Below are positions 5,487 to 27,620 of a stretch of 43,821 nt of DNA, piece by piece. A program made the position numbers and the translations under genes. The notes under the pieces are model-generated. The model searched no databases, was not told where the DNA came from, and saw only the letters and a program-made list of their open reading frames with translations. How positions within the stretch are numbered: position 1 is the first letter of the stretch; every line of letters begins with the position of its first letter. The DNA comes from Escherichia phage VerenaMeyer_Bas76: the sequence record PQ850632.1; one strand, written 5' to 3'.

Positions 5487-5873
5487 ATGAATCTTAAAGC
5501 AACTGTCGTAGCAGGAGCATGTTTCATCATCCTGGTTTACGCACACGGCATCTACCAGTATCGCAGCGGATGGAACGAAGGCCGGGCTAATCTCGTTTCG
5601 CAGCAACAGCAGAAAGCACAGGCTGAGTTAGCGAAGAAAACACAACGGCAGCAGCAGGATGAATCGAAGGCCGCCGCCGCTGACAACGAAGGCAAGACGA
5701 AATCAGAGGTGATTACCCGTGAAGTCGTTAAGTACATTAAAACGCCTGGTCGCAGTGTGTGCGCTTTTGACCCTGAGCGCGTGCAGCTCAAGTCCCGCGC
5801 CGTCGCAAACGCCAACTCCATCCCCGGATACGACGATGATGCAGCCGCCGTGCAAACTGGCACCGCCAAGTAG
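5487..5873 (+). CDS. i-spanin (Rz-like inner-membrane spanin)
   Basis: 128 aa. N-terminal transmembrane anchor (ATVVAGACFIILVYA) followed by a charged, Q/A/K-rich periplasmic region. Contains an out-of-frame lipoprotein gene, the Rz/Rz1 hallmark. Confidence 0.7.
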   Translation: MNLKATVVAGACFIILVYAHGIYQYRSGWNEGRANLVSQQQQKAQAELAKKTQRQQQDESKAAAADNEGKTKSEVITREVVKYIKTPGRSVCAFDPERVQLKSRAVANANSIPGYDDDAAAVQTGTAK

Positions 5874-5982
5874 CGACGCCGACGAGGATTTGGCTATCGA
5901 CGTTCAGAACGCTGAATGTGTACGGCAACTGCGTCTGAAAGTGTTCATGTTGCAGGATTACGTGAGGAATATTCTGGAATAG
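5719..5982 (+). CDS. o-spanin (Rz1-like outer-membrane lipoprotein)
   Basis: 87 aa, GTG start after AGAGGTGA, in the +1 frame overlapping the 3' part of the i-spanin gene and extending past it. Signal peptide with lipobox LTLSAC, followed by a Pro-rich mature region. Confidence 0.7.
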   Translation: MKSLSTLKRLVAVCALLTLSACSSSPAPSQTPTPSPDTTMMQPPCKLAPPSSDADEDLAIDVQNAECVRQLRLKVFMLQDYVRNILE

Positions 5983-6064
5983 TTGCCTTGCATGTTGGAA
6001 TAATTTATTCTTGACATGTAAATCCGGGTGGCCCGGATTCCAACGTCCAGGGGACATACTGACT

Positions 6065-7879: not shown

Positions 7880-8221
7880 ATGGCAGACGTATTGAAGCGG
7901 CGCATCACCGGCGTCTCCGCTGACGCCCCGGGGGCCAAGATTGACATGGCGACTATTTCTCCTGCGTCTTTTTCTACCGCACTGGACGCTACCACAGCAG
8001 TTACAGCCGGGCAGACTATGACACTGCCCGTAGTTGTTACCGGTGGTCTGGCTCCGTACACCTACCAGTGGTACAAGGATAACAACGCTATCGCCGGGGC
8101 AAACGCTGCTTCCTATGCGAAGGCGTCCACTACTACCGCAGATTCTGGTACGTATAAAGTGGTTGTTCACGATGTGTATGGTAATATTATCTCCAGCAGC
8201 ACTGTAGCAACTGTGTCTTAA
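7880..8221 (+). CDS. Ig-like domain protein (second copy; possible decoration protein)
   Basis: 113 aa, ATG after AAGAGGA. Motifs YTYQWYKDNNAIAG...GTYKVVVHDVYG are Ig-like/BIG signatures, paralogous to 4417..4878. Confidence 0.6.
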   Translation: MADVLKRRITGVSADAPGAKIDMATISPASFSTALDATTAVTAGQTMTLPVVVTGGLAPYTYQWYKDNNAIAGANAASYAKASTTTADSGTYKVVVHDVYGNIISSSTVATVS

Positions 8222-8257: not shown

Positions 8258-8437
8258 ATGGCAGATAATTATGTAATCCGCGAAAAGTACACCCACGTTG
8301 ATGTTGTTGACGGTCAGGTGATGCCTGTTCGCGGTGTTGTAGAGGCGGATGAACTGGTTGCAACCCAACCGGACAACGAAGAAGCGCACAACAACGGCGG
8401 TGGTACTAAGCGTCGTCGCCGTAAGTCAGAGGAATAA
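8258..8437 (+). CDS. hypothetical 59-aa protein with basic C-terminus (below ORF-track cutoff)
   Basis: ATG 8258 after AAGGAAAGG; open frame to TAA 8435-8437; ends GGGTKRRRRKSEE. Found by manual translation. Confidence 0.35.
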   Translation: MADNYVIREKYTHVDVVDGQVMPVRGVVEADELVATQPDNEEAHNNGGGTKRRRRKSEE

Positions 8438-8440
8438 TTT

Positions 8441-8953
8441 ATGCCGCTAATCGTGGAAACTGGGGTGATCGTCCCAAATGCCGACAGTTACATTAGTCTG
8501 GCTGACGCCCGCGCGTTAGCGGCTAATTATGGCCTTGAACTACCGGCAGACGATACCGCTGCAGAGGTGGCCTTGCGCAACGGTGCTACTTATGTCGGGC
8601 TTGCAGAACCGCAGATGTGCGGTCGTCGTGTATCCGCTGAACAGTCTCTGGCGTATCCTCGCACTGGCGTTACGTTAAACGGGTTCCCTGTCGCGAACAA
8701 TGTAATCCCGAAACAGGTTATTCTTGCGCAGGTAATCGCTGCCGCTACATATGGCGAGGGCACCGAAGTCCGGGCTAACTCAGACGGTCGCGCCGTGCAG
8801 ACTGAGCGTGTCGAGGGTGCGGTAACAGTGACCTACTTCAACAATGGCAACAGTGGCGCTACGACAGCGATTACCGCTGCTGACGACGCTTTACGCCCGT
8901 TATTGTGTGGCGGTCTTAACAATGGTTTCTCGTTTAACGTGTACCGGGGTTAA
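8441..8953 (+). CDS. head-tail connector / adaptor protein (putative)
   Basis: 170 aa. Position after the capsid genes and a composition resembling gp6-like connector proteins. Confidence 0.45.
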   Translation: MPLIVETGVIVPNADSYISLADARALAANYGLELPADDTAAEVALRNGATYVGLAEPQMCGRRVSAEQSLAYPRTGVTLNGFPVANNVIPKQVILAQVIAAATYGEGTEVRANSDGRAVQTERVEGAVTVTYFNNGNSGATTAITAADDALRPLLCGGLNNGFSFNVYRG

Positions 8954-8955
8954 AA

Positions 8956-9570
8956 ATGGCGAAGACTAAATCAGAGATATTCACGCTAATCGGTTCCGAG
9001 CTACCGGACAACACGACCGGACTTATTACGCCTGCGAAGTTGCGCGGGGTATTAACCCAGATGGCTGACTCACCTATTTACGCCACTCCGGGTGTTAAAG
9101 AGGTTGAAGTTCTCCGCGCTGCGTCGACAGTAGCGCAAGCGCCTACCGCAGTAGATACGGCGTTGCAGGTATCGTTCGGCTCTGCTCAGGGTAGTGCATC
9201 TGACCCGGTAATGATTAATGCTGCGGGGCTGGTTACATTCAACACCGCGGGTAACTACGCCGTTCGCATCAAGTTACAGGCGGGGCGCACAGGGGTCAGC
9301 GGCACGTCCATCCTGTTACCGCGCATTCTTCTTAACGGAGCTCAATACGGCTCACCAGCTGCCACGAAACTGGTAAGCGCCGATGTAACAATCCCGATTG
9401 AATCCCGCGTCGTTATTAACCCGACCGCAGGCCAGACGTTTGCCGTTCAGATTATGCGGGATAGCGCCGGGAGTAACTTCGGCGGCGTATACCCGCAAGC
9501 GGCTACGGTAACTGCATGGGGCACAGCACCATCTGCGCTACTGGTTATTTCGAGACTGGAGGCTGCGTAA
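8956..9570 (+). CDS. virion structural protein (unassigned)
   Basis: 204 aa, tightly packed in the head-tail joining region. No diagnostic motif recognised. Confidence 0.4.
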   Translation: MAKTKSEIFTLIGSELPDNTTGLITPAKLRGVLTQMADSPIYATPGVKEVEVLRAASTVAQAPTAVDTALQVSFGSAQGSASDPVMINAAGLVTFNTAGNYAVRIKLQAGRTGVSGTSILLPRILLNGAQYGSPAATKLVSADVTIPIESRVVINPTAGQTFAVQIMRDSAGSNFGGVYPQAATVTAWGTAPSALLVISRLEAA

Positions 9571-9701
9571 TGCGTAAAATAATTAATATGTGGATTAACT
9601 CTGATTTTTTGTGGAAGTACGAATTTTTGGTATCAGTGTTTGCGCTGGTATCAACAACAGCTCTAATTATATTTTTAGCGGTTTGCGGGGAGTCAACATG
9701 A
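9570..9701 (+). CDS. small hydrophobic membrane peptide (43 aa) in AT-rich insert
   Basis: ATG 9570 overlaps the upstream stop (TAATG) and is preceded by GGAGG. Encodes MRKIINMWINSDFLWKYEFLVSVFALVSTTALIIFLAVCGEST with one transmembrane segment. Local AT-richness contrasts with neighbouring genes. Stop overlaps the next start (ATGA). Confidence 0.4.
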   Translation: MRKIINMWINSDFLWKYEFLVSVFALVSTTALIIFLAVCGEST

Positions 9702-10057
9702 GCACCGCTTTCAGCAAACGTATGCAGGGCGTGGGTACACGCCTGCTAACCAAATTCGGTAGCACGGTAGCTCTGGTTCGCGCTGGCTCGAAAGTGTGGG
9801 ATGAAGTTCTCGGTGAATACGTCTGGTCTGCGGATGAAGCGCTGCCGTTGAAGGCCGTTCCGGTTCCGGTAAACGCTGGGCTGGTAAACGGTACGACGAT
9901 TCAGGCTGGCGACATGATTGTTAAAGCGGATTGTAGTGTCGTTCCGAAGATGGAAGACAAGGTACAATTCGGCGGCGAGCAATGGTCGGTCGTAGCCATT
10001 GAGAAGAAGATGGTTAACGATGATGTCGTGGCATATTTTATTCAGGTGAGAAAATGA
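9698..10057 (+). CDS. head-tail joining protein (putative)
   Basis: ATG 9698 after GGGGAG; about 119 aa. Position between connector and neck genes. The ORF-track start at 9611 is probably too far upstream. Confidence 0.4.
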   Translation: MSTAFSKRMQGVGTRLLTKFGSTVALVRAGSKVWDEVLGEYVWSADEALPLKAVPVPVNAGLVNGTTIQAGDMIVKADCSVVPKMEDKVQFGGEQWSVVAIEKKMVNDDVVAYFIQVRK

Positions 10058-10554
10058 GTTTCGCGCTTGATGTCTCTAAGTTCGTGGAAAAGGCGAAGAA
10101 GAACCCCGAGAAGGTGATGCGTCAGGTGTCTATCAAGCTGTTTTCCGCTATTATAAAGGCGAGTCCGGTAGATACAGGCCGGTTCCGAATGAACTGGATG
10201 GCCTCTGGCAGTACCCCCGCTTCCGGTACAAGCCGCGGTACTGACCCTAGCGGGGCGAACGCGATAAGCGCTATGGTTTCTGCGGTGTCAGGTTTACCCG
10301 ACTGGAGCGAGTTTACCCTGACAAATAACCTGCCGTATGCGGAAGTTATAGAGTTCGGGGGTTACGCTACTGGCTTCCACGGCCCTAAGCGCCCTTCTAA
10401 CTTAGGCTCTAAATTTGTTGGCCCATTGAGGCCGAAAGCGCCCAGCAGAACAACCACAGACGGATATTCCCTTCAGGCTCCGCAAGGTGTTGTCCGGGTT
10501 AACGTTCAGCGATTCAATAAACTGCTCGAAGAAGAAGCGAGGAAGTATAAATAA
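10054..10554 (+). CDS. neck/tail component, HK97 gp10-like
   Basis: 166 aa. Motif PVDTGRFRMNW is typical of the HK97 gp10 tail-component family. Confidence 0.55.
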   Translation: MSFALDVSKFVEKAKKNPEKVMRQVSIKLFSAIIKASPVDTGRFRMNWMASGSTPASGTSRGTDPSGANAISAMVSAVSGLPDWSEFTLTNNLPYAEVIEFGGYATGFHGPKRPSNLGSKFVGPLRPKAPSRTTTDGYSLQAPQGVVRVNVQRFNKLLEEEARKYK

Positions 10555-10967
10555 TGGGCTACTTTGAGGACTTAACAAAAGCGTTCGATGTTCCGCTGGT
10601 AGCCTTCGGAACCGCCAACGGCATCAAGGTTGCGCTTGAAAACATCGACGCGCCGACGTCAACCGATACGCCGTATCTGGCGAGTTACATGCTACTGGCA
10701 GATACCGAGCAGGCGGATTTGTTCTTCACTGAGCAACGCTCTGGTATTTATCAGGTAGACATTAACTACGCATCGGTGAAAGGTAGCGCGCCAATCAATA
10801 AAATGGCAGACTTACTTAACACGGCGTTTAAAGCAGGTAAGTCATTTTCGCGTAACGACATCTGCGCCGAGGTTCAATCGGTTAGCCTGGGGCCGCTGAT
10901 TGTAGAAAACGGATGGGCCAAACGACCATTGTCAATTAACTTTATTGCATTCACCAAGAGGCTGTGA
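10554..10967 (+). CDS. tail terminator / tail completion protein (putative)
   Basis: 137 aa, ATGA-coupled to the gp10-like gene and precedes the major tail gene. Confidence 0.4.
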   Translation: MGYFEDLTKAFDVPLVAFGTANGIKVALENIDAPTSTDTPYLASYMLLADTEQADLFFTEQRSGIYQVDINYASVKGSAPINKMADLLNTAFKAGKSFSRNDICAEVQSVSLGPLIVENGWAKRPLSINFIAFTKRL

Positions 10968-26941: not shown

Positions 26942-27257
26942 TTCTAAATTCCTTATATTGTTGGGGTATGTGCTTACTATAATAGTCTGCTATTAGGGTG
27001 TCAATCTGTTTTATCGAACCAACGACAAAAACATTTGCGCCACGTTTACGTATACGCTCGTGTTCCCGTAGCTGGTGCGGGTCTGGCTTAGTGTTTTCGT
27101 CTTTCTTCACCTCGACGAACCAGACGATGCCGCCGGGTAGAATTGCCAGCAGGTCAGGAGCGCCTGAACGTCCTTCGTAGGAAAGTTTACGAACGAGGCC
27201 ACCAATGGCCTCGAATCGCTCTTTTGCGTATTTCTGGATGCGGCCCTCTTTAGTCAT
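26925..27257 (-). CDS. VRR-NUC domain nuclease
   Basis: 110 aa. PD-(D/E)XK-type motifs GAPDLLAI...VWFVEVKK...QLREHE, characteristic of VRR-NUC. Confidence 0.7.
   Translation of the reverse strand: MTKEGRIQKYAKERFEAIGGLVRKLSYEGRSGAPDLLAILPGGIVWFVEVKKDENTKPDPHQLREHERIRKRGANVFVVGSIKQIDTLIADYYSKHIPQQYKEFRNETRI
26975..27003 (-). promoter_or_regulatory. sigma70-type promoter TTGACA-N17-TATAGT (internal, inside the 3' end of the VRR-NUC gene)
   Basis: Minus-strand reading TTGACACCCTAATAGCAGACTATTATAGT. Same family as 30678 and 32978. Confidence 0.45.
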
Positions 27258-27406
27258 GACCGCAGCATCCAGGTAAGGAAAACCCAGCCTAGAATGGCAA
27301 CACCGGCAAACTGAAAGAACAGGCCGTAACAGAACATAGCAGCTATTCCCGCACCGAGTAACAGTGCGAGCATGGTTACTATGGTCCTAAATACAAACTT
27401 TGTCAT
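27254..27406 (-). CDS. small membrane protein (50 aa, two predicted TM segments; below cutoff)
   Basis: Manual translation MTKFVFRTIVTMLALLLGAGIAAMFCYGLFFQFAGVAILGWVFLTWMLRS. ATG preceded by GAGGGG; ATGA overlaps at both ends. Confidence 0.35.
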   Translation of the reverse strand: MTKFVFRTIVTMLALLLGAGIAAMFCYGLFFQFAGVAILGWVFLTWMLRS

Positions 27407-27492
27407 AATACACACCCCTCACGTTTCGTATGCTCAATCCCGCAGCGCGGACAGATTCGGCAGTCTTCTTCGTATAACCAGTAAATTTTCAT
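27403..27492 (-). CDS. zinc-ribbon-like micro-protein (29 aa; below cutoff)
   Basis: Manual translation MKIYWLYEEDCRICPRCGIEHTKREGCVL with CxxCxxC and a further Cys. ATGA overlaps with both neighbours. Confidence 0.25.
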   Translation of the reverse strand: MKIYWLYEEDCRICPRCGIEHTKREGCVL

Positions 27493-27620
27493 TCCAGCAC
27501 CCACAAATAAATTGCTACTAGCATACCCAATACGGCGACCATCATGCCGTATTGACCCTCGTGACAGTAGACACCAGCGGCGAATCCCGCCAGCACCGCG
27601 ATAATCAGTTTACTTAGCAT
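27489..27620 (-). CDS. small membrane peptide (43 aa; below cutoff)
   Basis: Manual translation MLSKLIIAVLAGFAAGVYCHEGQYGMMVAVLGMLVAIYLWVLE. Start overlaps the DNA polymerase 3' end; stop overlaps the next ATG. Confidence 0.3.
   Translation of the reverse strand: MLSKLIIAVLAGFAAGVYCHEGQYGMMVAVLGMLVAIYLWVLE

Follow-up and report, generated by a model that had tools for sequence, protein, structure and literature searches.

Morons are defined as extra DNA of deviating GC content that carries its own promoter and terminator and is active in the repressed prophage (PMC3594210). Gene 15 of phage HK97 encodes a small inner-membrane protein, has a deviant GC content, is extra DNA in the tail operon and is absent from close relatives; its product, gp15, is a YebO-like inner-membrane superinfection-exclusion protein, with its own promoter and terminator, that is expressed by the prophage (PMC3594210). 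Here, we describe a micro-gene that is like HK97 gene 15 in encoding a small membrane protein, in its odd GC content and in being an insert in a structural operon. It occupies positions 9570-9701 of the plus strand of Escherichia phage VerenaMeyer_Bas76 (PQ850632.1), whose 43,821-nucleotide (nt) stretch, "the window" in what follows, is a complete-genome-sized Kagunavirus (Guernseyvirinae) sequence. We consider it highly probable that this is a genuine, translated accessory gene for a single-pass inner-membrane micro-protein, coupled into the late operon, residing in a polymorphic slot and recently spread. The slot itself, with its four or more unrelated cassettes, is our chief new finding and was absent from the first-pass annotation of this DNA.

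The slot was surveyed by comparing Bas73, Bas70, Bas72, Hrm2 and RP180, and then 76 IMG/VR loci reached through the gene for head closure protein Hc1; the counts given here come from a recount of the listed groups, which comprise 73 loci. The junction between the upstream gene, which encodes a 204-residue C1q-like protein, and Hc1 is found in five states: empty, or filled by one of four unrelated cassettes, each with a single open reading frame (ORF). In 59 of the 73 loci the slot is empty and the flanking genes overlap directly, by TGATG, TAATG or ATGA; nearly all of the more distant Jersey-like relatives are in this state. Ten loci have a 95-nt cassette for a 32-residue hydrophobic transmembrane (TM) peptide, also present in 29 GenBank phage records that include the prototypes K1G and K1H. 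Two have a 110-nt cassette for a 37-residue basic peptide of net charge +7 (five GenBank phage records), and two a 338-nt cassette for a 113-residue Cys-rich protein, phrog_11861, represented in GenBank by RP180. The micro-gene, whose inserted cassette proper comprises the 128 nt from 9570 to 9697 (plus strand) and encodes a TM peptide of 43 residues, is in none of the 73 loci and in seven GenBank phage records. The first-pass annotation had spoken of an inserted gene, and the word can be taken literally, since most relatives join the flanking genes directly (TGATG/TAATG) with nothing between. Comparative genomics of the slot, the check that it had proposed, thus finds no gene there in the 59 loci, nor in Bas72.

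The BASEL collection samples several of these states. Bas73 and Bas75 carry the 43-residue cassette, Bas72 has an empty slot, and Bas70, Bas71 and Bas74 have another cassette. Bas72, an isolate that forms plaques with an empty slot, shares about 96% identity with the window in its flanking proteins. The micro-gene is therefore not needed to assemble virions or to form plaques.

Each cassette consists of exactly one ORF, which starts on the overlap with the upstream stop codon and ends in an ATGA on the start of Hc1. Every cassette captures the GGAGG that drives Hc1 directly in relatives with an empty slot. A clear purine run resembling a Shine–Dalgarno (SD) sequence precedes Hc1 within the 32-, 37- and 43-residue cassettes; in the RP180 cassette it is weak (ACGGGG). 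That all cassettes are exact single ORFs, most of them with an SD for Hc1, is what one would expect if they were translational relays only, with the ORF kept open so that ribosomes reach Hc1 and the peptide without a function; T-rich DNA, moreover, gives hydrophobic peptides by default. However, the slot takes real genes. The 113-residue Cys-rich gene belongs to a widespread phage family, with homologues elsewhere in many unrelated phages (Klebsiella, Salmonella, jumbo Pseudomonas), and a homologue of the 32-residue peptide at 55% identity, MNRFFYGAAFGFVLAVVIHSFNALKTLQQVFG, is found in Cornellvirus VSiA at a different site, after the lysis genes. Because these homologues lie at other genome sites, no fewer than two of the four types are mobile real genes.

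The micro-gene comprises 43 codons and a TGA stop, is annotated as "hypothetical protein" (Bas73_0017 and equivalents) and encodes the peptide MRKIINMWINSDFLWKYEFLVSVFALVSTTALIIFLAVCGEST. Its ATG (9570-9572) shares an A with the TAA stop (9568-9570) of the 204-residue gene, forming a TAATG overlap, and its own TGA (9699-9701) overlaps the ATG (9698-9700) of the 119-residue Hc1 gene as ATGA. The GGAGG, at 9558-9562 on the plus strand, ends 7 nt 5′ of the ATG. The strong SD and the coupling on both sides described in the first-pass annotation were, therefore, both located. A second SD, GGGGAG at 9687-9692 (plus strand), is embedded in the end of the micro-gene reading frame; 5 nt separate it from the Hc1 ATG at 9698, and it substitutes for the SD captured by the cassette. 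With GGAGG captured and an SD of its own embedded, the cassette would be translated by coupling and Hc1 expression left undisturbed; the micro-gene would be expressed, if at all, in the late structural operon by translational coupling.

The left cassette junction contains a perfect tandem 7-nt repeat, TGCGTAA|TGCGTAA (9564-9577, plus strand), that spans the stop/start overlap; in M01, CR01 and AMO_3701M the second copy reads TGCGAAA. The cassettes of the RP180 type and of a divergent homologue, P0036, open with 6 nt (ATGAGC or ATGAGT) that match the Hc1 start downstream. Such junction repeats and repeated start hexamers may be traces left when the cassettes were inserted.

Two other start codons were considered and rejected. 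An ATG at 9516, which would give a 61-residue product (9516-9701), has no SD and overlaps the upstream gene in another frame; the frame from this ATG is open merely because, as the +2 frame, it runs along a conserved gene. The other candidate, an ATG within the ORF at 9588 (Met7), also lacks an SD, and its use would lose residues that align with P0036. The ORF survives in 3.3% of mononucleotide shuffles, and 1.7% of the survivors are equally hydrophobic. The frame of the slot peptide is open for about 30 codons upstream (9477-9569), giving extended calls such as the 61-residue ORF. Three calls, P0018 and P0024 (237 residues) and P0017 (50 residues), are linked to the 32-residue slot peptide; those of 237 residues fuse the C1q-like gene with that peptide by a frameshift at about residue 170 that probably reflects an indel in the assembly. 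Among the fusion calls, none joins the C1q-like gene to the 43-residue peptide. Fusion calls may explain the clustering of the 43-residue peptide with 204-residue proteins in the protein collection.

Is the peptide itself under constraint? When 1.84 billion representatives were searched exhaustively with phmmer, a single true homologue emerged, the 46-residue phage peptide P0036 (MSIWSKVKDYWENSDFLWKYEFIGGWFILCLTAALIVFLAVAENSQ; E 6e-6, 56% identity), which carries no annotation. A second match, P0037, is a 1074-residue low-complexity repeat protein and was dropped as spurious. P0036 is encoded on the short assembly contigs L100 and L101 in the same slot, after a 207-residue C1q-like gene and before a 119-residue Hc1, with ATGA overlaps at both ends of its gene. 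The proteins that flank P0036 share about 71% identity with their counterparts in the window, and a GenBank search for a close relative of this lineage found none.

Over 42 codons aligned with P0036, the Nei–Gojobori method gave proportions of synonymous and nonsynonymous differences (pS and pN) of 0.74 and 0.36 for the micro-gene, with omega, the nonsynonymous-to-synonymous ratio, at about 0.14; the other two frames gave omega values of 1.0 and 2.0, with stops present. The flanking genes, compared with the P0036 lineage, gave pS 0.70-0.71 and omega about 0.10-0.11. The juxtamembrane motif NSDFLWKYEF (9597-9626, plus strand; residues 10-19) is identical in P0036, with four synonymous and no nonsynonymous changes in its codons, and the helix stretch "TxALI[IV]FLAV" is also kept. 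Because omega is about 0.14 in the micro-gene frame and the motif is kept, an incidental ORF is ruled out and a mere translational relay is strongly disfavoured. The Kagunavirus copies, with two synonymous changes and L26M, cannot prove constraint alone, which favours the relay. Nevertheless, given the contrast with omega values of 1-2 in the other frames and a 10-residue motif intact across its synonymous changes, we regard the relay as very unlikely. The motif and the helix may be identified, from their conservation, as the functional core of the peptide.

The same comparison bears on the proposal that the segment is a non-coding regulatory or RNA element, such as an internal promoter for the tail genes, in which the ORF is incidental. 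AT-rich islands often hold promoters, and a 12-bp hairpin is predicted inside the ORF. However, a search of 8400-10600, limited to a consensus scan, found no sigma-70-like promoter or terminator, for which shuffles lead one to expect 1.6 and 2.2. The RNA folding of the segment is ordinary (z -0.68; 55 of 200 shuffled sequences gave an equal or better fold), Rfam gives no match at E <= 1, and P0036 keeps the protein, not the nucleotides. A regulatory element in place of a gene is, in our judgement, extremely improbable.

Other searches for relatives of the micro-gene returned little. A word-indexed search of 5.8 billion proteins found no relative with the single peptide as query and only P0036 with the alignment. 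There was no match by blastn in 5,426 E. coli genomes, no relative by tblastn in plasmids, nothing beyond the seven carriers by tblastn and blastn in phages, and no relative in degenerate-pattern scans of metagenome, genome and viral contigs. Family libraries gave no match for the peptide in Pfam, PHROG or NCBIfam (E <= 0.1-10), PADLOC or PDB sequences.

The base composition sets the micro-gene apart from its surroundings. Its GC content is 0.348, as against 0.52-0.60 in the flanking windows and 0.506 in the whole window, and its GC at third codon positions (GC3) is 0.37, as against 0.55-0.70 in the neighbouring genes. Among the 81 annotated coding sequences of the near-identical Bas73, it has the lowest GC content. 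The locally AT-rich segment that the first-pass annotation had contrasted with the structural genes is, thus, borne out by both measures, and the composition is foreign at synonymous sites as well. Bas73 (L088) has two further hydrophobic micro-genes on the minus strand, of 50 residues (27162-27314) and 43 residues (27397-27528), which lie between the genes for the Holliday-junction resolvase and endonuclease VII in the replication module; each apparently has two hydrophobic stretches. Since these two have GC contents of 0.48-0.49, hydrophobicity alone does not account for the low GC of the micro-gene.

How did the cassette come to be where it is? The segment 8900-10100 of the window (1.2 kb) shares 98.5% identity with Escherichia phage GertrudWoker_Bas73; it has matches in 150 phage records, nearly all of them E. 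coli and Salmonella Guernseyvirinae. The seven GenBank carriers differ at 0-2 of 132 nt in the cassette, with a divergence of 1.6-13.4% in the upstream gene and 2-8% in the downstream genes; in UTEC10 the downstream figure is about 29%, by an ungapped comparison and with a shorter, 131-residue Neck1 allele. The block of near-identity is short: it starts at -150 nt in UTEC10, M01, CR01 and AMO_3701M and is the cassette alone in Bas75 and KMB35. Another carrier, L098, has an identical cassette, but the 50-nt bins next to it hold 4-11 differences, and bins more distant on the upstream side as many as 16. In a set of 17 distinct haplotypes, the cassette has 5 segregating sites in its 128 nt and a nucleotide diversity (pi) of 0.007; pi is 0.055-0.059 in the neighbouring 150 nt and reaches 0.13-0.14 at greater distances. 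Because a near-invariant cassette stands amid flanks that differ by 6-14% (5-13% where the cassette has 0-2 differences in 132 nt), a recent spread by homologous recombination is indicated, and within the E. coli Kagunavirus pool the cassette appears to be far younger than its carrier backgrounds. The exact 43-residue peptide was found in 99 blocks of public assemblies, none on a contig longer than 50 kb, and all ten places inspected lie in the neck slot. The absence of the exact peptide from such contigs and the lack of any match in E. coli genomes both fit a virulent phage. The suggestion that this is a small acquired gene for a membrane peptide is, therefore, upheld by its absence from most relatives, its foreign composition, its recent recombinational spread and purifying selection.

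The product has the single hydrophobic helix that had been claimed for it. Its most hydrophobic stretch of 19 residues on the Kyte–Doolittle (KD) scale, residues 20-38, reaches 2.58, the apparent free energies of insertion sum to about -2.2 kcal/mol, and one TM helix of about 22 residues is predicted (9624-9689, plus strand; approximately residues 19-40). The AlphaFold2 model, from a 3-sequence alignment and with a mean predicted local distance difference test score of 85.5, has a helix at residues 2-9, a break at N10-S11-D12 and a single long helix at 13-42. The charges are N-terminal (R2, K3 and K16, with D12 and E18 opposed to them), and the 3-residue tail is acidic. By the positive-inside rule, the topology is probably N-in/C-out, so that just 3-4 residues are predicted on the far side of the membrane. 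A lipoprotein or o-spanin was considered at L36-A37-V38-C39 and rejected: set against the lipobox [LVI][ASTVI][GAS]C, which follows a signal peptide and precedes a mature domain, the -1 residue is atypical and the mature part would have 5 residues. The candidate lipobox Cys39 is replaced by Ala in P0036.

It is tempting to propose that, late in infection, the peptide would insert N-in/C-out into the cytoplasmic membrane and there bind a membrane-embedded partner through contacts of its TM helix and juxtamembrane motif. The 3-4 residues past the helix would leave little scope for periplasmic action. What might the partner be? One tentative possibility is the lysis system of the phage itself, or else the energised state of the membrane, by which the time of lysis is set. 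Genes that modify lysis timing are as a rule accessory, and holin triggering is sensitive to the state of the membrane. The lysis reading comes to mind because the late operon has lysis genes among the structural genes: in Bas73, two holins and an endolysin (40.6-41.8 kb) are in the same plus-strand block as the structural genes. They lie about 12 kb from the micro-gene on the circular map (30 kb on the linear one). Rz/Rz1-like spanin genes are present in Bas73 (L088) at 5509-6004, between head-decoration and scaffold genes and far from the holin-endolysin cassette; an offset of -22 from Bas73 puts them, by estimate, at about 5487-5982 of the window. The peptide was rejected as a holin by location and homology, given the distance of about 12 kb from the lysis cassette and the lack of a PHROG or Pfam holin match, and as a holin or antiholin by domain, since it has a single TM helix followed only by G-E-S-T, with no charged hydrophilic tail.

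A slightly less likely partner is an abortive-infection or defence effector in the host membrane, which late proteins of the phage would set off and which the peptide would neutralise. Expression alongside the late structural proteins, a conserved motif on the cytoplasmic side of the helix that would suit a specific protein contact, the sweep-like valley in diversity and a slot that accepts other accessory genes, including the widely mobile 113-residue gene, all suit this explanation. However, no homology to known anti-defence proteins and no PADLOC-related match was found, and the text of the BASEL paper describes the Kagunavirus isolates as very alike on the tested defence systems, with neither the carriers Bas73 and Bas75 nor the non-carriers singled out. 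The paper, which describes Bas70-76, reports no phenotype difference between carriers and non-carriers and does not mention the micro-gene.

The first-pass annotation had also named an exclusion factor. Here, the inner-membrane peptide would act on the DNA-entry route of competing phages and block genome entry of later arrivals, like HK97 gp15 or T4 Imm. A small inner-membrane protein of foreign GC content, added within a structural operon, is just what HK97 gene 15 offers (PMC3594210), and recombinational spread across diverged backgrounds suits a trait for competition between phages. Yet the consensus scan found neither a promoter nor a terminator for the micro-gene, the phage is virulent and hence has no prophage expression, coupling to the late neck genes would be too late for most of the infection cycle, and the part facing the periplasm is only 3-4 residues. 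Scans with Pfam and PHROG, general ones not aimed at exclusion families, gave no match at E <= 0.1. We consider exclusion unlikely. That the target is something other than these three is a considerable possibility, though short of probable.

Several points weigh against our reading of the micro-gene as a translated, recently spread membrane-peptide gene with a role of this kind. The case for its translation is built from sequence evidence. The estimate of constraint comes from a single divergent pair whose synonymous sites are close to saturation. Of the 18 carrier sequences, ten were fetched by an exact match to the peptide, so that nonsynonymous variants are hidden among them; the low diversity recurs in the eight carriers free of this bias, with two synonymous changes and one L26M, and these three substitutions among the Kagunavirus copies are too few for dN/dS among themselves. 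The diversity valley marks recency, not necessarily positive selection, and the topology was assigned solely by counting charges. As to the target, a lysis set of two holins, an endolysin and spanins is already present in the phage, the C terminus of the peptide lacks a charged tail, and a blastp comparison with the full Bas73 protein set gave chance matches only, with no similarity to the holins. A lysis role is a guess, and exclusion and anti-defence are equally unsupported; expression from the late structural operon is a poor fit to exclusion.

A bolder proposal is that the junction is a dedicated exchange site of the Guernseyvirinae where unrelated, translationally self-sufficient micro-genes are swapped, and that the 43-residue peptide lately swept through diverged Kagunavirus genomes under strong positive selection because it disables a specific membrane-embedded target by means of NSDFLWKYEF and the TM helix. 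The target could be a host abortive-infection effector or the DNA-entry route of a competitor phage. We hold this to be improbable as a whole, if only slightly more so than the counter-defence role by itself. If true, it would mean a new class of late membrane micro-protein weapon and a promoter-less carriage of accessory genes in virulent phages.

The surroundings of the slot, ordered by PHROG and Pfam scans of the window proteins, bear out the placement of the micro-gene among head-tail joining genes. Head-tail adaptor Ad1 (8441-8953) is followed by the 204-residue gene (8956-9570, plus strand; phrog_3614), the slot, the 119-residue Hc1 (9698-10057, plus strand; phrog_161 / phrog_17193), Neck1/tail completion (10054-10554) and the tail terminator (10554-10967), after which comes the tube protein. 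The 204-residue protein is called a "C1q domain protein" in one source and a "neck protein" in GenBank; Pfam gives only a weak BclA_C match, and a search for a solved structural relative found none. Hc1 and Neck1 overlap directly in the window (10054-10057), with no gene between. On contig L100 (1294-1455; also L101, 1010-1171) a 53-residue gene (MKLTLKNRLMLCWEVLTTRSGHANTAQEKQ..., GC 0.48) lies between them, which suggests that the neck module has a second accessory slot. Neck1 (10054-10554 in the window) has two length alleles, of 166 residues in the window and Bas73 and of 131 residues in UTEC10, L093, L096, L098 and L099; in an ungapped comparison, sharp divergence sets in about 650 nt after the start of the cassette.

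Upstream of Ad1, a conserved acidic protein of 59 residues with a C-terminal GGGTKRRRRKSEE tail (8258-8437) is kept in all relatives inspected; no family could be assigned to it. In front of it, the window has a single 113-residue Ig-like (Hoc-like) decoration gene (7880-8221). Bas73 (L001:160-822) and several assemblies have a 99-residue gene plus a 116-residue Ig-like gene instead, and assembly L096 has an additional 129-residue PF13876 (Phage_gp49_66) gene just 5′ of the 59-residue gene. The head-decoration region is, thus, a further polymorphic site.

Micro-proteins of fewer than 50 residues are the least understood part of phage genomes and are often written off as annotation noise. The present locus would be a case in which a 43-codon ORF can be recognised as a real gene under selection from sequence data alone. 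Its function is directly testable, since near-isogenic natural controls are at hand in a public, phenotyped collection: Bas73 and Bas75 with the cassette, Bas72 with an empty slot, and Bas70, Bas71 and Bas74 with another. The slot also illustrates how virulent phages can gain genes within coupled late operons without breaking translational coupling. Should the peptide tune lysis, exclusion or defence evasion, it would be relevant to the engineering of these small phages, which target O-antigen and capsule; the BASEL paper describes Kagunaviruses as an attractive chassis for synthetic biology.

How, then, does the micro-gene compare with known systems? It differs from HK97 gene 15 in that the consensus scan found no promoter or terminator for it, in being coupled on both sides and in residing in a virulent phage. 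Of the features that define a moron, it has two: it is extra DNA, given the 59 empty slots among 73 loci and that of Bas72, and its GC content is different (0.35 vs about 0.55). An own promoter and terminator were not found, in a consensus scan of 8400-10600 only. We therefore call it an accessory gene, not a moron in the strict sense. Families of known exclusion proteins (gp15/YebO, Imm, Sp, SieA, Cor, Llp) were considered and set aside, with no Pfam, PHROG or NCBIfam match (E <= 0.1-10).

Its nearest counterpart by position is the alternative occupant of the slot in K1G and K1H, the 32-residue TM peptide MNKF[AT]CG[LV]VFGFLTAV[VA]LHSYGVLLTLQEVLK. The two have in common the junction, the double coupling, the embedded SD for Hc1, a single hydrophobic helix and the annotation "hypothetical"; the K1G/K1H peptide is unrelated in sequence, shorter and less hydrophobic (KD 1.89 vs 2.58). 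Bacteria, too, have single-helix inner-membrane peptides of 20-50 residues, among them the regulators AcrZ, MgrB, SgrT and MgtS and the type I toxins Hok, TisB and Ldr, which bind a larger membrane protein or depolarise the membrane. Unlike these, the micro-gene has no Pfam or NCBIfam match, is of phage origin and lies in a late operon. A type I toxin of the Hok/Ldr/TisB kind was rejected: the product is small and hydrophobic, but there is no antitoxin RNA in Rfam, no promoter and no Pfam toxin family. Holins and antiholins are small late membrane proteins, and accessory modifiers of lysis timing often vary between related phages. The micro-gene differs from holins in having one TM helix and a 3-residue tail, in not adjoining the endolysin and in being unlike the two holins of the phage. 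Accessory small membrane proteins of phages are known; what this locus adds is a clearly delimited, multi-allelic slot for micro-genes.

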